The notes under the pieces are model-generated. The model was given only the letters and a program-made list of their open reading frames with translations. It was not told the DNA's origin and ran no database searches. The position numbers and the translations under genes were made by a program. A DNA stretch of 64,000 nucleotides from Nevskiales bacterium (GTDB taxonomy: Bacteria; Pseudomonadota; Gammaproteobacteria; Nevskiales; JBOICV01). The stretch spans positions 24,708 through 88,707 of the forward strand of contig JBOICV010000092.1 of assembly GCA_050740255.1 (NCBI GenBank). Reading direction: 5' to 3'. Shown here one piece after another: positions 3,508-48,705 of this stretch. How positions within the stretch are numbered: the stretch's first letter is position 1; every line of letters starts with the position of its first letter.

Positions 3508-3541
3508 CCCCTCTCCCTCTGGGAGAGGGTACGGGTGAGGG
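3508..3541. repeat. REP-like palindromic element (CCCTCTCCC-tct-GGGAGAGGG + GGGTGAGGG tail)
   Basis: Perfect 9-nt inverted arms lie directly after the DUF3604 stop. Near-identical copies are at 22967-23002 and 35374-35407. Confidence 0.85.
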
Positions 3542-5545: not shown

Positions 5546-6019
5546 GTGCGGGCCATTGAGGTACAGCTCCGCGTGCAGCACGGCGGGGTCTTGTCGCTGA
5601 GTTATCAGCTTGTAGGCGACCTCACCCGGTTGCGTATCCCCGAAACACGGCCGCCACGCCGTGCTGACCAGCTTTGGCGGCACTCTTGCTTCGAAGCCTT
5701 CGTTCGCCAGGCTGGGCAACCCGCTTACCGCGAATACAATTTTGCGCTCTCGCGCGAATGGGCGGCGTATGGTTTTCGCAGATACCGCGAAGGCATGCAG
5801 CCGCTAGAAGCGCCTGATCCTGCGATCGTCGCGCGTAGTGCAGGCGAGCGGCTGGAGCTTGACGCAGTCATCCAGATAAAGGATTTTTTGGCCCTGCAAC
5901 TGGGGCTTGCCGCTGTCGTAGAAGAGCTAGATGGAACCATTTCCTACTGGGCGCTGTTGCATCCACTCGGCAAACCGGACTTCCATCACCCGGATACGCT
6001 GGCTGTGGAGCTTCGATAG
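5546..6019 (+). CDS. DOMON-like domain protein (start uncertain; the frame stays open upstream to about 5462 with no canonical start)
   Basis: The sequence LWRHSCFEAFV..YREYNFALSREWAAYGF is typical of proteobacterial DOMON-like proteins. The 5546 start is GTG. Confidence 0.55.
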   Translation: MRAIEVQLRVQHGGVLSLSYQLVGDLTRLRIPETRPPRRADQLWRHSCFEAFVRQAGQPAYREYNFALSREWAAYGFRRYREGMQPLEAPDPAIVARSAGERLELDAVIQIKDFLALQLGLAAVVEELDGTISYWALLHPLGKPDFHHPDTLAVELR

Positions 6020-6054
6020 CGGCGCATGCCTTATTCTTGATCTTTCCAAAATGG

Positions 6055-6074
6055 ATGCCGGCTTCCGCCGGCAT
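6055..6074. repeat. Perfect 8-bp-stem hairpin ATGCCGGC-ttcc-GCCGGCAT after the DOMON-like gene
   Basis: Inverted repeat read directly from the sequence. It has no T-tract, so it is not called an intrinsic terminator. Confidence 0.5.
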
Positions 6075-6103
6075 GACGGACAAGAGAGGGTTCGATAAAA
6101 GCA

Positions 6104-7309
6104 ATGAAGTTCGGTATTGATCGCCTGCTGGAAGATGCCGCGTTGCGCAAACCGCTCGCGGGCCGCCGTATCGGTTTGCTGGCACATCCGGCTTCGGTGA
6201 CGCGTGATCTGGCGCACTCGCTCGATGCACTGGCAGGGCTGAAGGGCATCAATCTAACTGCCGCTTTCGGTCCGCAACACGGACTGCGCGGCGACAAGCA
6301 GGACAATATGATCGAGTCGCCGGATTTCCGCGATCCGGTGCATGGCATCCCGGTATTCAGCCTTTACGGCAAGCTGCGCCGGCCCTCCGCGGAGATGATG
6401 GGCAGCTTCGATGTATTGCTGGTGGATTTGCAGGACCTCGGCTGCCGTATCTACACCTTCATAACGACTTTGCGCTACGTGCTGGAGGAAGCGGCTAGGC
6501 ATGGCAAGACGGTATGGGTGCTTGATCGGCCCAATCCTGCCGGACGACCGGTGGAGGGCTTGAAGCTGCGCGCGGGCTGGGAGAGTTTCGTCGGCGCCGG
6601 GCCGCTGCCAATGCGTCACGGTCTGACGATGGGCGAGCTGGCGCAATGGTTCGTGCGCACACTCAAGCTCGACGTGGAATGTAATGTGGTGACGATGCAA
6701 GGCTGGCAGCCGGCGCGGACACCGGGCTACGGTTGGCCGCTGGGCGAGCGTGCCTGGGTGAATCCGAGCCCGAATGCAGCCAACCTGTCCATGGCGCGCT
6801 GCTATGCGGGTACGGTAATGCTCGAGGGTACGACACTATCCGAAGGCCGCGGCACCACGCGTCCGCTGGAGTTGTTCGGGGCACCGGATCTGGAACCGCG
6901 TGCCTTGCTAGCTGCGATGGAATTGCTGGCTCCACAATGGATGCGCGGTTGCCGGCTGCGAGAGTGCTGGTTTGAGCCGACTTTCCACAAGCATTCCGGC
7001 AAGCTCTGTGCGGGAATTCAGATTCATGTCGAAGACGCGGCCTACGACCATGACGCCTTCCGGCCCTGGCGTCTGATGGCTCTGGCATTCAAGGCGCTGC
7101 GCAGATTACGTCCAGAGTACGAACTCTGGCGCGATTTCCCCTACGAATATGAGCGTGATCGGCTGGCGATTGACGTGATCAACGGCAGCGAGCTGTTACG
7201 CCAATGGGTGGACGATACTGCGGCTACACCCGCCGATCTGGATGCGCTCGCCGCCGCCGATGAAACGGCGTGGCGTGCAGAGCGTGAAGCACTGCTGTTG
7301 TACCGCTGA
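6104..7309 (+). CDS. DUF1343 family protein (NamZ-like exo-beta-N-acetylmuramidase)
   Basis: 401-aa ORF. The start MKFGIDRLLED..GRRIGLLAHPASV and the later DLQDLGCRIYTF and NPSPN segments match the DUF1343/YbbC pattern. Confidence 0.8.
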   Translation: MKFGIDRLLEDAALRKPLAGRRIGLLAHPASVTRDLAHSLDALAGLKGINLTAAFGPQHGLRGDKQDNMIESPDFRDPVHGIPVFSLYGKLRRPSAEMMGSFDVLLVDLQDLGCRIYTFITTLRYVLEEAARHGKTVWVLDRPNPAGRPVEGLKLRAGWESFVGAGPLPMRHGLTMGELAQWFVRTLKLDVECNVVTMQGWQPARTPGYGWPLGERAWVNPSPNAANLSMARCYAGTVMLEGTTLSEGRGTTRPLELFGAPDLEPRALLAAMELLAPQWMRGCRLRECWFEPTFHKHSGKLCAGIQIHVEDAAYDHDAFRPWRLMALAFKALRRLRPEYELWRDFPYEYERDRLAIDVINGSELLRQWVDDTAATPADLDALAAADETAWRAEREALLLYR

Positions 7310-22966: not shown

Positions 22967-23002
22967 TTCCCTCTCCCTCTGGGAGAGGGGCAGGGGTGAG
23001 GG
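22967..23002. repeat. REP-like palindromic element (same family as 3508-3541)
   Basis: The sequence ttCCCTCTCCCtctGGGAGAGGGgcaGGGGTGAGGG lies directly after the glyA stop. Confidence 0.85.
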
Positions 23003-23044: not shown

Positions 23045-23554
23045 ATGTTCTGCCCCTTTTGTGGTGCGCAGGATACTCGCGTCATTGATACCCGTTTAGC
23101 GGCTGAGGGTCATCAGGTACGCCGTCGCCGAGAATGCTCTGCTTGCAGTGAGCGCTTCACCACTTTCGAGAACGCGCAATTGGTGATGCCGGCCATCCTC
23201 AAGCGCGACGGCAACCGCGAACCCTTCAATGAACCCAAGCTCAGGACGGGTATGGAGCGGGCCTTGTACAAACGTCCGGTGCCGGCCGAGGCGCTGGACG
23301 ATGCGCTCGATCACATACGACATCGTCTGCGCACCTATGGTGAGCGCGAAGTGCCGGCGCGCACCCTGGGCGAATGGGTCATGCAGGAGTTGCGCGCGCT
23401 GGATCAGGTGGCGTTCGTGCGTTTTGCGTCGGTGTACCGGCAGTTCGCCGACGTCAATGCCTTCCGCGAGGAAATCGAACGCTTGCAGCAGACGCCGGAC
23501 CCGGAAGTGCGCCGGCGCCAATTGCCGCTGATCTCGGGCGACGATGAGCGATAA
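23045..23554 (+). CDS. nrdR: Transcriptional repressor NrdR
   Basis: It begins with the zinc ribbon [34 protein letters not shown] and continues into an ATP-cone. Confidence 0.97.
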
Positions 23555-24680
23555 GGCAGCAGATGCGCGCTTCATGGCGCGCGCTTTGGAATTGGCACAG
23601 CACGGGCTTTACACCACCCACCCCAATCCACGCGTCGGCTGCGTGCTGGTCAAAAACGGCGAGATTGTCGGTGAAGCCTGGCACGAACGCGCCGGTGAGC
23701 CGCACGCCGAGGTGCTCGCACTGCGCGCTGCGGGAGAGCAGGCGAAAGGCGCAACCGCTTACGTCACGTTGGAACCCTGCTGCCATCAGGGGCGTACCGG
23801 TCCGTGTACCGATGCCCTAATCAAGGCTGGCGTGACGCGTGTGATCGCGGCCATGCAGGACCCCAACCCGAAAGTAGCCGGCGGCGGCTTGGCGACATTG
23901 CGCGATACGGGGATCGGCGTTGAAAGCGGTCTGATGCAGGCGCAGGCCGAGTCGCTGAATCGCGGCTTCATCAGCCGCATGCGCCGACAGCGGCCCTGGG
24001 TCCGGCTCAAGCTGGCGATGAGCCTGGATGGCCGCACCGCTGCGGCCAATGGCGAAAGCCGCTGGATCACCGGTGAGCTGGCGCGGGAAGACGTGCATAG
24101 GCTGCGCGCTGAGTGCGGTGCGGTACTTACCAGTTCGGCGACGGTGCTGGCCGATGATCCTTCATTGACCGTGCGCAGTTTTTCTCTCCCTCCCCCCGGT
24201 GGGGAGGGGTTAGGGAAGGGGGGAGTCTTGATTCGGCAACCTGACCGGATTGTGCTGGATGCAAGGCTACGGGTGCCCGCCAGCGCAAAAGTCTGGGCAC
24301 CTGGGGCGCGCCGCTTCGTGCTTACGAGTGATCCGGATAAATCCGGAAGTCACGGCCCCGAAGTGCAAACCCTGCGCATTGCCGCGCAAGCCGGCCGGCT
24401 GGATCTCCGCCAGGCCCTGGCGACGCTAGCCGCATTCGAGATCAACGAGATATTGGTCGAATGCGGCCCGCGCCTGGCTGGTGCACTTCTGCAGGCGAAG
24501 CTCGTGGATGAGCTGACTATCTACGTCGCCCCCATCCTGTTGGGCGATAAGGCGCCGGGTTTGGCGCACTTGCCGGATGTTCAATCGCTGGCGCAACAGC
24601 TCGCGTTTCAAGTCACCGATGTCCGTGCTTTTGGCTCGGACTGGCGCATCATCGCGACTCCTCGCACGCAAAGCGTGTGA
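23544..24680 (+). CDS. ribD: Bifunctional diaminohydroxyphosphoribosylaminopyrimidine deaminase / 5-amino-6-(5-phosphoribosylamino)uracil reductase
   Basis: 378 aa. It has the deaminase motif [21 protein letters not shown] and the reductase part [27 protein letters not shown]. Confidence 0.95.
24184..24225. repeat. REP-like palindromic element lying in frame inside ribD
   Basis: The sequence is CCTCCCC-ccggt-GGGGAGG followed by ttaGGGAAGGGGGGAG. It encodes ..[14 protein letters not shown].. between the conserved TVR and RQP segments. Confidence 0.75.
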
Positions 24681-26945: not shown

Positions 26946-27396
26946 AGCTGCGATCGCCGCCCCCCCTGCGGGCAATAACCGCCACAAGGCCCGCTGCCTG
27001 GCGCTGCAGGCGCTTTATCAGCATCAGCTCAATGGCCTGTCCCTTGGCGAGTTGCTCAATCAGTTTTTGCGCGGGAAAGAAATGGATCGCGCCGATCGTG
27101 AGTATTTTAGCCGCCTGGTTGGCGGGGTGATGGAGCACGAGGGCGAACTGGTCATGGCCTTCGCGCGCTATCTCGACCGGCCGCTGACCCAGCTTGACCC
27201 GGTTGAGCGCGCGGTGCTGCTGATCGGCAGTTTCGAGTTGCTGCACTGCCCGGAACTGCCCTACCGCGCGGCGATCAACGAAGCCGTGCAGCTGGCCAAG
27301 ATTTATGGCGCCAGCGAAGGCCATAAGTACGTCAATGGCATCATGGATCGCCTTGCGCGCCAGGCGCGCGCCGTGGAACTGGCGGCGGCGCCGTAA
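26938..27396 (+). CDS. nusB: Transcription antitermination factor NusB
   Basis: 152 aa with RHKARCLALQALYQ.. and AINEAVQLAKIYG..YVNGIMDR. It overlaps ribH by 8 nt. Confidence 0.95.
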   Translation: MSEAAIAAPPAGNNRHKARCLALQALYQHQLNGLSLGELLNQFLRGKEMDRADREYFSRLVGGVMEHEGELVMAFARYLDRPLTQLDPVERAVLLIGSFELLHCPELPYRAAINEAVQLAKIYGASEGHKYVNGIMDRLARQARAVELAAAP

Positions 27397-27427
27397 ATTC
27401 ACCGCATCTTCCGGGCGGGCCGCCGCA

Positions 27428-28516
27428 GTGACCAACGAATTTGAGATTATCCGCCGCTACTTCCAGCGGCCCCCTAAGCGTCCGGACGTAGTGCTGGGTT
27501 CGGGCGATGACGCGGCGCTGTTGCAGCCGCCGCCCGGCATGCTGCTGGCTGCGACGACCGATACGCTGGTGGCGGGCCGGCATTTCCACGACGACTGGCC
27601 GGCGGCCGATATCGGCTGGCGGGCGCTGGCGGTGAATCTGAGCGATCTGGCGGCGATGGGTGCGCAACCCGCCTGGTTTACCTGCGCATTAACGGTCCCT
27701 GAAGCGGATGAAAAATGGCTCGCCGGGTTCGCTCAAGGCCTGTTTGAACTTGCGGCGCAATACCCGCTGGATCTGGTCGGCGGCAATCTAAGCTGCGGAC
27801 CGCTCAGCATCACGATTCAGGCTCTGGGGTTCGTAGCGGCAGAGAAAGCGTTGCGGCGCGACGCGGCCCGACCCGGCGATCTGATCTGTGTGACCGGCAC
27901 GCTCGGCGATGCGAGCTTGGCCTTGCAATTGCTCGATACCCGCCCCCCCAACCCTCCTTCGACAAGCTCAGGACAGGCTCTCCCGCAAGGGGAGGGGGAA
28001 CAGAGTTTTTCTCCTCCTCGCGCGGAGGGTGTAAGTAAAAATCTCCCTCCCCCTCGTGGGGAGGGATTAAGGGAGGGGGGCGCAACAGATGCGCAGCTTA
28101 TCTATCTAACACAGCGCCTGCGCCGTCCCACCCCGCGCATCGCGGCCGGTTTGGCGCTGGCTGGCGTGGCGCATGCCGCGATAGATATTTCGGACGGCCT
28201 GGCGGCCGATTTGGGCCACGTGTTGGCCGCCAGTGGCGTCGGGGCTGAAATCCGCACCAACAAGCTCCCGATGTCTCCCGCGTTTGCACGCCTCGCGCCT
28301 CGCGCCTCGCGCCTCCCGCTACAACTTTCCGGCGGCGACGATTACGAGCTATGTATCTGCCTGCCGCAGGATAAACTAGCCGCCGTGCAGGCCCGCTTGA
28401 ATGTGCCGCTGACCGTTATTGGTGCGGTCACAGCTACAGCGGGACTGCGCGATCTAAGCACTCCGGGAGGTCAACGCCTGACACCGGCGGGTTACGACCA
28501 CTTTCCCAATATATGA
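27428..28516 (+). CDS. thiL: Thiamine-monophosphate kinase carrying an internal repeat-derived insertion of about 40 aa
   Basis: The GTG start gives VTNEFEIIRRYFQRP..LGSGDDAALL..TDTLVAGRHF..AVNLSDLAAMGA. The track ORF from 27305 overlaps nusB and is too long. Confidence 0.9.
   Translation: MTNEFEIIRRYFQRPPKRPDVVLGSGDDAALLQPPPGMLLAATTDTLVAGRHFHDDWPAADIGWRALAVNLSDLAAMGAQPAWFTCALTVPEADEKWLAGFAQGLFELAAQYPLDLVGGNLSCGPLSITIQALGFVAAEKALRRDAARPGDLICVTGTLGDASLALQLLDTRPPNPPSTSSGQALPQGEGEQSFSPPRAEGVSKNLPPPRGEGLREGGATDAQLIYLTQRLRRPTPRIAAGLALAGVAHAAIDISDGLAADLGHVLAASGVGAEIRTNKLPMSPAFARLAPRASRLPLQLSGGDDYELCICLPQDKLAAVQARLNVPLTVIGAVTATAGLRDLSTPGGQRLTPAGYDHFPNI
27940..28082. repeat. Composite of three REP-like hairpin units lying in frame inside thiL
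   Basis: Three units are visible. Unit 1 is CTCTCCC-gcaag-GGGAGGG. Unit 2 is a CTCCTC..GGAGGG unit. Unit 3 is a perfect 9-bp TCCCTCCCC-ctcgt-GGGGAGGGA plus attaaGGGAGGGGGG. A ccttcgacaagctcaggacagg stretch precedes them. Confidence 0.8.
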
Positions 28517-31482: not shown

Positions 31483-31551
31483 ACGTCAGGGAACCTTTGC
31501 CAGGCCTCGCTGCCGATTAGATCCCGCGATTTGAGCAGGCACTTTGGTTCC

Positions 31552-31950
31552 ATGCGTATTGGACAGCTCGCAAAGACCGCTTGCGTCGGTGTGGAGACCA
31601 TCCGTTACTACCAGCGCATCGGTCTGTTTCCGAATCCACCCAAGCCCTATGGCGGCACACGTCACTACGATGCAGCGGGTCTCGTGCGACTGCGCTTCAT
31701 CCGCCGCGCGCAAGGGTTGGGGTTCTCGCTGGAGGAGATTCGCGCCCTGCTGGAACTTTCGCGTGAAGACTGCGCCGACGTGCAACGGCTCGCGACCCGC
31801 AAGCTCGACCTGGTGCGCGGCAAAATCAAGGACCTCAAACGCATGGAAACGGCGCTCAAGGGTACGCTGGCGCGCTGCCGGACACGTCGCCGGCACGCTC
31901 CCTGTCCCATCATCGAAACACTCGCCGAGGCTGATGACAGCACCACTTGA
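31552..31950 (+). CDS. merR: Hg(II)-responsive MerR-family transcriptional regulator
   Basis: It has the HTH MRIGQLAKTACVGVETIRYYQRIGL, the Cys in SREDCADV, and a C-x8-C pair (ARCRTRRRHAPCPIIETL) at the spacing of MerR Cys117/Cys126. Confidence 0.88.
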   Translation: MRIGQLAKTACVGVETIRYYQRIGLFPNPPKPYGGTRHYDAAGLVRLRFIRRAQGLGFSLEEIRALLELSREDCADVQRLATRKLDLVRGKIKDLKRMETALKGTLARCRTRRRHAPCPIIETLAEADDSTT

Positions 31951-31978
31951 CTCCGTACCCCAGTACGGCGTTTAGGCT
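31947..31978 (+). promoter_or_regulatory. MerR operator / PmerT-type promoter
   Basis: The -35 TTGACT (31947-31952) overlaps the merR stop codon. The dyad CCGTAC-ccca-GTACGG spans 31953-31968. A 19-nt spacer precedes TTAGGC (or 20 nt to TAGGCT). The Tn501 arrangement is TTGACT-N19-TAAGGT with TCCGTAC-N4-GTACGGA. Confidence 0.8.
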
Positions 31979-32008
31979 GGACGCGTCCCCTGGCAACTGG
32001 AGACGCAG

Positions 32009-32353
32009 ATGCAGGATCGCAGCAAAACCTGGTTATCCCTCGGCGTAGTGGGCGCAGTCGGTGCATCCCTGTGCTGTACCTTGCCGCTGCTGCTCGTCAT
32101 GGCCGGTTTGGGCGGAGCCTGGCTTGGGACTTTGCAGCTGTTTGCACCCTTCCGGCCGGCCTTTATCCTGTTCGCGTTCGCCGCGCTGGCCGTCGCGGGG
32201 TGGCAGATTTTCCGCACAGCGCCGGCCTGCGAGGCAGAGCAGGTTTGTGTGGAGCCTGCGTTGCAGCGACGGCGCAAAGGGATATTTCTGGGCGTGACTG
32301 CCTTGGTCGTCGCACTGATTGCTAGCCCCTATCTGGTCGCATATCTGGGGTGA
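32009..32353 (+). CDS. merT: Mercuric ion transporter MerT
   Basis: 114 aa with three TM helices. It has the vicinal Cys pair in TM1 (GASLCCTLPLL) and the cytoplasmic-loop pair C-x5-C (APACEAEQVCVEP). Confidence 0.85.
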   Translation: MQDRSKTWLSLGVVGAVGASLCCTLPLLLVMAGLGGAWLGTLQLFAPFRPAFILFAFAALAVAGWQIFRTAPACEAEQVCVEPALQRRRKGIFLGVTALVVALIASPYLVAYLG

Positions 32354-32670
32354 AAGCCATGAAATCCGCCATTCACGCCCTGCTGCTGATGTTGGTGGTG
32401 CTAGCGCCCGTGCGAGTGTTCGCCGCCGACCGCTGGGTGCGGCTATCCGTGCCGGACATGAACTGCCCGGCCTGCCCGGTAACGGTGCGCAAAAGCCTCG
32501 AACGCGTGACCGGCGTGGAAGTGCAATCGGTGGACCTCAAGTCCAAAACAGCGGTCGTGCTGATTCGCGATGACCGTGTGACCGACGCCGCGCTAACCCA
32601 GGCCACCGCCGGCGGCGGCTACCCCTCTGTCGTCGTTCCGGAGAACATCTATGAATCTGACCGCCATTGA
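32350..32670 (+). CDS. merP: Periplasmic mercury-binding protein MerP (HMA domain)
   Basis: It has a signal peptide and the motif VPDMNCPACPVTVRKSLERV. The GTG overlaps the merT TGA; an ATG at 32359 is an alternative start. Confidence 0.85.
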   Translation: MKAMKSAIHALLLMLVVLAPVRVFAADRWVRLSVPDMNCPACPVTVRKSLERVTGVEVQSVDLKSKTAVVLIRDDRVTDAALTQATAGGGYPSVVVPENIYESDRH

Positions 32671-33034
32671 TCCCGCGCTCGGCCAGATGGGCGAATTTGC
32701 CAGGGCCACCGGCAACGTCACCGCGCCAGTGCAGAAGCTGCGCGAGATGACGCTCTTGCGCGATGGCGCGCTACCGGCGCGCATCAAGACGCTCGCGGCC
32801 TTGCTGTGGGCTGTTTCCAGCCGCTGCGAGCCCTGTATCAAGTTCTATGCGCAAAAGGCGCGAGAGCTGGGGGCGAGCGATGCCGAGTTGGGCGAGATGC
32901 TCGCGCTTGCACCCACGATGGGCGCTTGCGTGGCGGAGATGTGGGCACTAAAAGCCTTCGCCGCGGCAAAGAATCCAACCGAAGCAAACCAACCACCTAA
33001 AGGAGATGACAATGCTGAAACCTGCTGCGTATGA
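32651..33034 (+). CDS. Carboxymuconolactone decarboxylase (AhpD-like) family protein with a CxxC motif and a C-terminal Cys-Cys
   Basis: 127 aa with RBS ggag. The sequence LPARIKTLAALLWAVSSRCEPCIKFYAQKARELGASDAEL matches the CMD/AhpD core. The tail reads ..GDDNAETCCV*. Confidence 0.7.
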   Translation: MNLTAIDPALGQMGEFARATGNVTAPVQKLREMTLLRDGALPARIKTLAALLWAVSSRCEPCIKFYAQKARELGASDAELGEMLALAPTMGACVAEMWALKAFAAAKNPTEANQPPKGDDNAETCCV

Positions 33035-33512
33035 TTTCTTCCGCGGATTTCTCGTCGTCGCGCTGATGTTGCTGGCGCATTCCGCGCTGGCTGCACCGAA
33101 AGCCGTAGCGGAATTGACCCTGAACTATCAGAAGTCGGCGGACCGGCAGATGTCCGATGGCGGACATCTATTTGCTCGATGCCAGTACCTTGGCTCGGGC
33201 GATGGCACAGCGACCGGGGCCATTGCCGGCCGCGTCGGCTGGGATTTGCACGAGGATCAGTCACGCGACGACCTGCACCCGACCCAGTTCCGCGGCTTCA
33301 TCGAGCGTGACGGCAAGCGCCATCCGTTCCAGATCATTGGCGTGTTTACGCCGGAACCCGGCCAGCCGATCCGTCGCTGGAAGCTCACCGGGACCATCGT
33401 TTTTGATGACAACGCACTCTTCACCGGCCAGCATGCCCCCGTAACCGGTTACGTTGAAACCGGAAGCTGGAAGCATCGCTACACTGTGCTGGTGGACAGT
33501 GACGTCAACTAA
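33012..33512 (+). CDS. Secreted protein of unknown function (mer-operon member)
   Basis: An ATG lies 6 nt after a strong RBS aaggag. The signal peptide is MLKPAAYDFFRGFLVVALMLLAHSALAAP. No motif was recognised. It overlaps both neighbouring genes. Confidence 0.65.
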   Translation: MLKPAAYDFFRGFLVVALMLLAHSALAAPKAVAELTLNYQKSADRQMSDGGHLFARCQYLGSGDGTATGAIAGRVGWDLHEDQSRDDLHPTQFRGFIERDGKRHPFQIIGVFTPEPGQPIRRWKLTGTIVFDDNALFTGQHAPVTGYVETGSWKHRYTVLVDSDVN

Positions 33513-34137
33513 GTGCGTGGCCCGTATCCTGAGCCTGTTCCCGAAGCTGGATAATGCAGCTCAGCGCCTTTCGCTTGCGCTGTACCGCCAGCTGGCTCGG
33601 GGCGAACCGGTATCCACAACCCGACTCGCCGCCGCCGTTGATCGCGACGCATCAGCGGTAAGCGAGCAATTAAGCCAATGGCCCGGCGTGTTTTACGACG
33701 AGCAGGGTGCCGTGATCGGCTACTGGGGCTTGAGTATCCACCCGATGGCGCACCGGTTTCGGGTTAACGGTCGCAATCTCTACACCTGGTGCGCGTGGGA
33801 CAGCCTGTTCATCCCCGAGTTGCTTGGCGAGACGGCGCACGTTGAGTCGTTCTGCCCGGTGACGCGGACACCCATCCGGCTCACCGTCACGCCGCAAGGC
33901 GTCGAAGACCTACAGCCAGCAACCGCAGTGATGTCGCTGATGCTGCCGGCCCACAGCAGCGTGATGTCGGACATCGCCGCACGCTTCTGCCACTACGTAC
34001 ACTTCTTTGAATCCGCGAACGCTGCAACGCGTTGGCTGCCCGAGAACCCCTCAACAATGGTTGTCGGAGTCGGGGAAGGGTTCGAGCTGGGGCGAATGAA
34101 GAACGACATTCAGTATCTTGACCAAGCGTTAGCCTGA
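33499..34137 (+). CDS. merB: Organomercurial (alkylmercury) lyase MerB (start GTG 33499 or GTG 33517)
   Basis: The catalytic contexts RNLYTWCAWDSLFIP (Cys96/Asp99 equivalent) and ARFCHYVHFFES (Cys159 equivalent) are present. The N-terminus LALYRQLARGEPVS resembles MerB. Confidence 0.85.
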   Translation: MTSTKCVARILSLFPKLDNAAQRLSLALYRQLARGEPVSTTRLAAAVDRDASAVSEQLSQWPGVFYDEQGAVIGYWGLSIHPMAHRFRVNGRNLYTWCAWDSLFIPELLGETAHVESFCPVTRTPIRLTVTPQGVEDLQPATAVMSLMLPAHSSVMSDIAARFCHYVHFFESANAATRWLPENPSTMVVGVGEGFELGRMKNDIQYLDQALA

Positions 34138-35373: not shown

Positions 35374-35407
35374 TCCCCTCTCCCTTTGGGAGAGGATGGG
35401 TGAGGGT
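35374..35407. repeat. REP-like palindromic element between tRNA-Arg and tRNA-His
   Basis: The sequence is tCCCCTCTCCCtttGGGAGAGGatGGGTGAGGG, the same family as 3508 and 22967. Confidence 0.8.
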
Positions 35408-48424: not shown

Positions 48425-48535
48425 AATAAAGACGCGCAGCGTCCTTGTCCTCCCTCCCCTTGAGGGAGGGGTAGCGCGCAGCATCCTTATGCTCTCTCCC
48501 CGCTTGCGGGGAGAGAATAGAGCGAGGGGCAGGAT
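48425..48535. repeat. Two tandem composite REP-like units upstream of tRNA-Leu
   Basis: The units are ataaagaCGCGCAGCgTCCTTgTCCTCCCTCCCCttgaGGGAGGGG and tagCGCGCAGCaTCCTTatgCTCTCTCCCCgcttgcGGGGAGAG. Each has a GCGCAGC-TCCTT leader plus a palindrome. Confidence 0.8.
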
Positions 48536-48541
48536 TTCCGT

Positions 48542-48626
<85 letters not shown>

Positions 48627-48628
48627 GA

Positions 48629-48705
48629 AGATAAAGACGCGCAGCGGCCTTATCCTCCCTCCCCTTGAGGGAGGGAGAAGAGGGAGGGGTAGGGCGCAGC
48701 GGCAA
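48629..48705. repeat. Composite REP-like unit downstream of tRNA-Leu (direct repeat of 48425-48470)
   Basis: ataaagacgcgcagcgGccttAtcctccctccccttgagggaggg matches the upstream copy with 2 mismatches over 44 nt. GGTAGGGCGCAGC follows, against GGTAGCGCGCAGC upstream. Confidence 0.8.

Follow-up and report, generated by a model that had tools for sequence, protein, structure and literature searches.

The stretch of DNA analysed here (the window) covers 64 kb of a metagenome-assembled genome labelled Nevskiales bacterium and carries, with every gene on the + strand, the gene row nrdR-ribD-ribE-ribBA-ribH-nusB-thiL-pgpA, in which the order from ribD to pgpA is kept in relatives and in E. coli. The thiL gene for thiamine-phosphate kinase extends from 27428 to 28516 on the + strand (the stop codon ends at 28516) and was recognized on basis of its open reading frame (ORF), its homologs and the Pfam domains AIRS and AIRS_C. 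It contains 142 additional bases (27941-28082), which are in frame and add around 44 residues to the protein. In the original prediction these bases were described as a triple palindromic element, similar to REPs (repetitive palindromes of extragenic regions), translated inside a ThiL of 363 amino acids. The peptide, the ORF and the in-frame extra segment are all present, and the protein is longer than its E. coli counterpart (325 amino acids), but it counts 362 residues when read from the GTG at 27428, a start choice that is backed by the alignment with relatives. The public annotation gives a ThiL of 393 amino acids that starts upstream (in the region 27305-27427) and overlaps nusB.

The insert is located precisely at the junction between the N-terminal AIRS domain and the C-terminal AIRS_C domain. 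In the alignment with E. coli ThiL a gap of 41 residues is found at exactly this position, and in the alignment with a solved structure (PDB 3mcq) the query residues 1-175 and 220-359 abut at chain residues 174 and 175, leaving residues 176-219 unmatched. The AlphaFold model of the window ThiL has a mean confidence score (pLDDT) of 88.9, and superposition of its core on the solved ThiL structures yields target-normalised TM-scores of 0.93-0.94. Residues ~172-220 of the model, situated between the helices 161-171 and 221-232, have pLDDT values of 44-66 and lack secondary structure. The segment encoded by the insert (residues ~172-219), which is rich in proline, glycine and glutamate, is therefore predicted by the model to be a disordered loop between the two domains, a placement with which the 3mcq alignment agrees. 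The base composition of the insert differs from that of the gene around it (GC content at third codon positions of 0.49 versus 0.70 in the rest of thiL), and it uses the rare codon TTA. A reading as intein or intron was rejected, as the insert shows the features of neither and its reading frame just stays open.

When 63 ThiL sequences were aligned, 78 columns proved invariant, and the window ThiL keeps all of them (78/78). The domain encoded 3' of the insert shows a ratio of nonsynonymous to synonymous substitution rates (dN/dS) of ~0.12 when compared to relative L001 and of ~0.13 when compared to relative L004, indicative of strong purifying selection. Considering this selection on the downstream domain, as deduced from the sequence comparison, the insert-bearing thiL is read through in frame, and the long ThiL is presumably both made and functional.

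Anatomy of the insert

The insert is made up of two triplex motifs that are inverted head to head, and its middle is duplicated. It is bounded by CGCCCCCC (27941-27948) and GGGGGGCG (28075-28082), which together form a perfect inverted repeat of 8 bp, and it contains three hairpins, at 27980-27994 (5-bp stem), 28012-28029 (5-6 bp stem) and 28044-28066 (perfect 9-bp stem TCCCTCCCC/GGGGAGGGA). The three hairpins that had been noticed originally, including the perfect stem, are thus confirmed, but the units to which they belong are not equivalent and do not represent three equal REPs.

The third unit (28044-28080, + strand) is an intact class-II triplex motif, composed of the Y-arm TCCCTCCCC, a loop CTCGT, the R-arm GGGGAGGGA, a loop TTA and the mirror R-arm AGGGAGGGG(GG). 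The third arm AGGGAGGGG mirrors the first R-arm exactly, giving nine perfect triads, and the unit shows the three blocks that define such motifs (a pyrimidine or Y-arm, a complementary purine or R-arm and a mirror R-arm, the stems being no shorter than 8 nt and the loops 1-6 nt long). Formation of an intrastrand triplex by this unit is predicted from the order of the arms, the folding used here modelling Watson-Crick pairs only. The right arm and the tail double as a canonical G-quadruplex motif. Stop codons occur in only one of the three frames per orientation, which follows from the sequence around TTA/TAA.

The first unit (27941-27999, - strand) is a degenerate triplex motif in reverse orientation. 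Read along the + strand it consists of the C-tail CCCCCCCAACCCTCC, a 21-mer module TTCGACAAGCTCAGGACAGGC (27958-27978, + strand) that fills the second loop, and the hairpin CTCCC-GCAAG-GGGAG. Exact copies of the 21-mer were recovered from at least 120 metagenome contigs (L126-L245) with a GC content ranging from 33 to 72%, mostly within larger palindromic repeats. The composite layout of the unit (C-tail, 21-mer, Y-arm, loop and R-arm) recurs in the unrelated metagenome contigs L134, L139, L140, L154, L183 and L203, that is in at least six among the 21-mer contigs listed (6/125). Neither the 21-mer nor the exact unit had a match in the literature searched, and no Rfam family matched in 15 contigs carrying the 21-mer. 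Within the window, Rfam recovered nothing but tRNAs at gathering thresholds, and nothing but sub-threshold noise over the insert.

The middle unit (28001-28038, + strand), which holds the weak hairpin at 28012-28029, resembles a partial tandem copy of the third. A direct repeat (D1) connects 28011-28035 to 28047-28071, with 80% identity over 25 nt at a distance of 36 nt, and about ten codons of this region are absent in relative L001. On these sequence comparisons the middle unit is best read as a local partial duplication.

Because the outer arms of a head-to-head pair are complementary, the insert has a terminal inverted repeat and its two ends pair together in the minimum-energy fold of the RNA (z-score -3.1). 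The two inverted units are thereby able to form one long hairpin, as is characteristic of REP/REPIN elements. Folded as DNA the whole insert was unremarkable (z -1.4), and the single units folded no better than shuffled sequences matched for dinucleotides or composition (z +0.4 to -1.4). Since composition alone yields strong stems, folding free energy was discarded as evidence, and the case for a repeat above chance level rests on motif counts.

Related copies in the window and in other genomes

These counts leave little room for coincidence. The pattern CCCTCCCC-N3-12-GGGGAGGG was observed twice in the window versus 0.01 expected, and CCTCC-N3-12-GGAGG seven times versus 0.61 expected. Complete three-arm triplex motifs were found six times in the 64 kb and never in 100 simulated sequences. 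Two of the six are located within genes, in thiL (the third unit of the insert, 28045-28077 in the three-arm scan, + strand) and in ribD (24184-24226; scan 24188-24220, + strand), and four are intergenic. The ribD copy, which is read in frame within the coding sequence (CDS) 23544-24680 and has one mismatch in its third arm, is a fourth copy inside a CDS that was overlooked originally. It is translated in the same frame as the thiL unit (LPPPxGEGLxxGG); in other genomes, copies are read in different frames and in the opposite orientation, and the dN/dS of the thiL insert is ~1 (see below). The intergenic copies, all on the + strand, lie at 3509-3541 (scan 3509-3540), 9 nt past a stop codon; at 22969-23002 (scan 22969-23001), 8 nt past the stop codon of glyA; at 35377-35406, between two tRNA genes; and at 48654-48694 (scan 48654-48688), downstream of tRNA-Leu and upstream of tig. 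Two relatives consisting of a hairpin only are present upstream of the same tRNA-Leu (48449-48516, with hairpins at 48449-48470 and 48493-48516, + strand). This tRNA gene (48542-48623) is flanked by a direct repeat of ~50 nt (AAATAAAGACGCGCAGCG.CCTT.TCCTCCCTCCCCTTGAGGGAGGG) at 48425-48476 and 48630-48681, each copy of which holds a hairpin of the family.

In all six complete motifs the G-arms lie on the + strand, the sense strand for the genes around them, a bias that may reflect the direction of transcription or of replication. All five canonical G-quadruplex motifs on the + strand fall within these units, and the - strand has a single such motif, formed by the left end of the thiL insert.

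The likeness of the insert to the intergenic repeats of the window, as originally claimed, holds in view of the shared three-arm design, and the element is a member of the BoxC/PIT/TM family of intrastrand triplex motifs, not a generic REP. The published pattern of the E. coli motif TM_ECO is CCCTCNCCC-N3-6-GGGNGAGGG-N3-GGGNGAGGG (Holder et al. 2015, PMC4666352). This exact consensus is matched only by the copy at 3509-3541; the units in thiL and ribD do not match it and constitute a sister subfamily, CCCCTCCCC / GGGGAGGG-TTA-GGGGAGGGG. A search with the right half of the unit, using one genome per species, recovered at least 119 loci (L007-L125) distributed over Chloroflexota, Planctomycetota, Alpha- and Gammaproteobacteria, Bacteroidota, Patescibacteria and others. 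Nearly all of the foreign loci listed also have the C-arm and the loop, neither of which was part of the search pattern, and among the matches listed the full unit CCCCTCCCC-loop-GGGGAGGGGTTAGGGGAGGGGG is near base-identical across many phyla. When an nhmmer profile was built from the foreign copies only (119), it matched ribD at 24184-24222 (E=2.5e-9) and thiL at 28042-28079 (E=4.3e-9).

Residence within genes is not limited to the window. Among the 121 foreign copies listed, 18 sit at least 100 codons inside an open frame. Ten of these were checked using Pfam and nine proved to be real genes in which domains flank the unit on either side, so that 9/121 of the copies listed are in frame within Pfam-confirmed genes. 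The hosts encode MetH (L016), a PBP4-type peptidase (L029), ValRS (L036), PSD1 (L037), SucC (L044), TsaD (L047), LeuRS (L097), a sulfatase (L119) and HrpA (L124). It is conceivable, though for now doubtful, that the CCCCTCCCC-loop-GGGGAGGGGTTAGGGGAGGGG unit and the 21-mer TTCGACAAGCTCAGGACAGGC make up a single pan-bacterial class of elements, near base-identical across at least six phyla, regularly in frame in essential genes such as those for MetH, ValRS, LeuRS, TsaD, SucC and HrpA and not just in the genome of the window, constant as DNA while the encoded peptide drifts, and able to flip in place without loss of frame. If true, such a class would imply an undescribed, sequence-specific and widespread process of mobilisation or homogenisation. 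Should the cross-phylum conservation and the in-frame cases hold, the question becomes which process keeps a non-coding motif of 40 nt near identical in Chloroflexota, Planctomycetota, Patescibacteria, Bacteroidota and Pseudomonadota.

Elsewhere in the window, a mercury-resistance cluster (31531-34137) encoding MerR, MerT, an HMA-domain protein, a CMD-family protein, an ORF without Pfam match and MerB is found between cysS and folD. As cysS and folD are adjacent in relative L002, the cluster looks like an inserted island.

Evolution of the insert and competing explanations

Relatedness between lineages was expressed as the amino-acid identity over eight shared genes. The closest relative of the window, L004 (87% identity), has no insert in thiL. 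In L003 and L002 (78%) the inverted pair is present in the opposite orientation and without the 21-mer, and in L001 (74%) the insert of the window is found minus ~10 codons. The element is also absent from the thiL genes of L005 and L006 and from all Solimonas and Nevskia ThiL homologs, as it is from the ThiL chains in the PDB; thus, in keeping with the original prediction, the lineages free of the repeat, E. coli included, do not have the segment. The inserts of L002 (4819-4898) and L003 (10531-10610) represent the window element as reverse complement, at the same site and still in frame. After reverse-complementing, they scored 90.5 against the window and 107 against L001, as compared to 50 and 56 in forward orientation and 19.7 +/- 5.3 for shuffled sequences, and one block of 37 nt in this comparison is identical at 36/37 positions. 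All length differences in thiL between the lineages are multiples of three. The ribD unit is likewise absent in L004, and in L002 and L003 a copy occupies this same codon position. In addition, simple heptamer repeats are present in ribD of L001, (GGGACTC)x7 within 5882-7021, and in thiL of L005, (GGGAGAC)x4 within 519-1478; both are in frame and sit exactly at the sites of the triplex units of other lineages. L001 and L002 both derive from assembly GCA_975200385.1, in which two different syntenic ribD-thiL-pgpA loci with ThiL proteins that are ~75% identical indicate a mixed bin.

The pattern of substitutions sets the insert apart from its host gene. Between the window and L001 the proportions of synonymous (pS) and nonsynonymous (pN) differences within the insert are equal (both 0.128; dN/dS ~1), whereas in the rest of thiL pS is 0.651 and pN 0.134 (synonymous contrast, Fisher p=2.4e-8). 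The synonymous divergence of the insert is thus 5-fold lower by pS, and 10-fold lower by corrected dS. A dN/dS of ~1 in combination with a low pS argues that the insert evolves as a nucleotide-level element and not as protein. Judged by these divergences, it would either be constrained as DNA or RNA, or be homogenised toward the family consensus, or be younger than the divergence of the host gene.

We consider it probable that a non-coding repeat of the triplex type was inserted in frame in the interdomain linker of ThiL, where it is tolerated, and we infer that it resides there as a neutral passenger. A small repeat would have lodged in the DNA encoding the flexible AIRS/AIRS_C linker, and the insertion would have survived because its length is a multiple of three, because the motif is free of stops in two of the three frames in either orientation, and because a translation rich in Pro, Gly and Glu would form a disordered, solvent-exposed loop that leaves the fold undisturbed. 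The segment would not be kept as protein; its DNA would either be conserved or undergo repeated homogenisation to the consensus of the family. As is the case for its intergenic relatives, the element would make the locus structurally unstable, as suggested by the partial duplication in the window, the flip in one lineage and the loss or absence in the closest one. The underlying history could be a single old insertion, accompanied by an inversion and losses, or a series of repeated site-specific insertions. The long ThiL is then most likely a normal enzyme with a harmless decoration, and an annotation as new domain or as pseudogene would be inappropriate.

Several observations weigh against this explanation. 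Among the four lineages compared, the window shares the insert with the most distant one and not with the nearest, which is awkward for a single ancient insertion, and the sliding-window identity to L001, L003 and L004 revealed no recombination tract around the insert, so that the sharing with L001 is not explained by a block of raised identity. No target-site duplication was found at the insert in comparison to the insert-free relatives, and no RAYT, transposase, integrase or other mobilising gene among the 50 ORFs of the 64 kb that were scanned with Pfam. Moreover, the first unit is degenerate, and its putative identity as a reversed triplex motif draws on its architecture and on the comparison with L002. 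As the window represents only 64 kb of the genome, a second thiL could be present elsewhere. Finally, the low synonymous divergence of the insert could fit a function at the level of the nucleic acid rather than a passenger.

Such a function in cis might take the form of a hairpin or G-quadruplex in the mRNA that pauses ribosomes at the domain boundary for co-translational folding or tunes the expression of thiL-pgpA, or of a triplex or quadruplex on the non-template strand of the DNA that affects transcription or replication. Besides the 5- to 10-fold reduction in synonymous divergence, the position exactly at the AIRS/AIRS_C junction, the presence of all six G-arms on the sense strand, the confinement of every canonical G-quadruplex motif of the window to the triplex family and the conservation of the unit across phyla are in its favour. 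We nevertheless regard it as unlikely, since the element is missing from the closest relative and from nearly all ThiL orthologs, since the inversion in another lineage puts the C-rich strand in the mRNA, and since the unit occurs at unrelated positions of unrelated genes. Furthermore, PIT elements tested experimentally had no promoter or terminator activity and no effect in vivo, and in vivo footprinting showed no stable triplex (PMC4666352).

One may also suppose that no pre-existing element was involved and that slippage in an indel-prone, low-complexity linker produced G/C-rich palindromes that happen to resemble the intergenic repeats. The ThiL loop is variable in length, as illustrated by the distant homologs P0036 and P0050, which have unrelated insertions of 40-50 amino acids in the same loop, simple heptamer repeats occupy the same sites in relatives, and the middle unit resembles a local duplication. 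Slippage, however, hardly accounts for the fact that the third unit and the ribD copy match the foreign profile at E ~1e-9, including an arm and a loop outside the search pattern, that the first unit reproduces a composite layout with the exact 21-mer of unrelated metagenomes, and that the three-arm motif never arose in simulated sequence; it seems quite improbable as the origin of the insert. Least plausible is an assembly artefact or a decaying thiL pseudogene with an untranslated insert. The window stems from a metagenome-assembled genome and the exact protein is found on a single contig, but related inserts are present at the same codon position in independent assemblies (L001; L002/L003), the frame and the invariant residues are intact, both sides of the insert are under strong purifying selection, and the gene order ribD-ribE-ribBA-ribH-nusB-thiL-pgpA is kept.

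With the preferred explanation of an inserted, tolerated repeat, the thiL site constitutes a natural experiment: it is empty in one lineage, occupied in two and flipped in another, and the substitution pattern separates constraint at the level of the DNA from constraint at the level of the protein.

Comparison with known repeat systems

The closest match is the BoxC/PIT family, with which the element shares the succession of a C-rich arm, a loop of 3-6 nt, a complementary G-rich arm, a loop of 3 nt and a mirror G-rich arm. Both are multi-copy, occur at times as tandem inverted pairs and are found at loci that are rearranged between close relatives, and to our knowledge no transposase is associated with the BoxC/PIT family. 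The G/C-rich intrastrand triplex motif BoxC/PIT/TM_ECO has been reported from E. coli and over 260 further genomes and has been linked to hypervariable loci (PMC4666352), which fits the instability at thiL and the heptamer repeats found in place of the element at the thiL site of L005 and the ribD site of L001. There are differences as well: the E. coli motif was reported to be always intergenic (PMC4666352), whereas two of the six complete copies in the window are translated in frame, and the first unit of the thiL insert carries a module of 21 nt in its second loop.

The REP-like nature and the parallel to the Rickettsia palindromic elements (RPEs) that were proposed originally hold in part. 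In-frame palindromic repeats are established for the RPEs (PMC10969869), and cases in Wolbachia and Pseudomonas are cited in PMC4496055. Like the RPEs, the element is a palindromic repeat with genic and intergenic copies that is found in frame in housekeeping genes and is tolerated as a peripheral segment, and the thiL insert is an in-frame insertion in a functional gene at a site compatible with the fold. RPEs, however, are found in Rickettsia only, have a length of ~100-150 bp and encode a peptide that is conserved, whereas the peptide of the thiL insert appears not to be conserved as protein (dN/dS ~1) and the unit is present in many phyla. The parallel is thus an analogy of outcome only. 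The REPs tagged with GTAG or CGTC are in frame in many species, where clusters encode 43-82 residues (dimers or clusters 20-80) and tRNA synthetase genes are among the hosts (Di Nocera et al. 2013, PMC3733652). These REPs are mostly intergenic, just past stop codons, and were argued to be neutral in loops and linkers (PMC3733652). The element resembles them in being a short G/C-rich stem-loop that is mostly intergenic with a minority within genes, but the thiL insert bears neither a GTAG nor a CGTC tag and possesses a third, mirror arm. In the window, GTAG follows the intergenic hairpins at ~48470 and 48686. A MITE (a transposable element of miniature size with inverted repeats) was considered as well in view of the perfect terminal inverted repeat of 8 bp, and rejected as there is no flanking direct duplication relative to the insert-free relatives. 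Given the lack of a tag, of a target-site duplication and of a transposase among the nearby ORFs scanned, the element should not be classified as a REP of the RAYT type, as a MITE or as an RPE. The TRIP1 repeats of E. coli were checked and found to be unrelated to the thiL element.

[quoted passage not shown] The quadruplex-capable element shares this property, the Xanthomonas repeats occur in a related gammaproteobacterial group, and the heptamers at the ribD and thiL sites of L001 and L005 resemble them; yet these are simple tandem repeats without a complementary C-arm. Compared to these systems, both the existence of in-frame palindromic repeats and the triplex family itself are already known. 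What goes beyond the known picture is that here the repeat is of the triplex/quadruplex type, that it was flipped in place, that a dN/dS of ~1 coincides with a low dS, and that the unit and the 21-mer are conserved across phyla. The BoxC/PIT family thereby joins the repeats that are able to live inside coding sequence.

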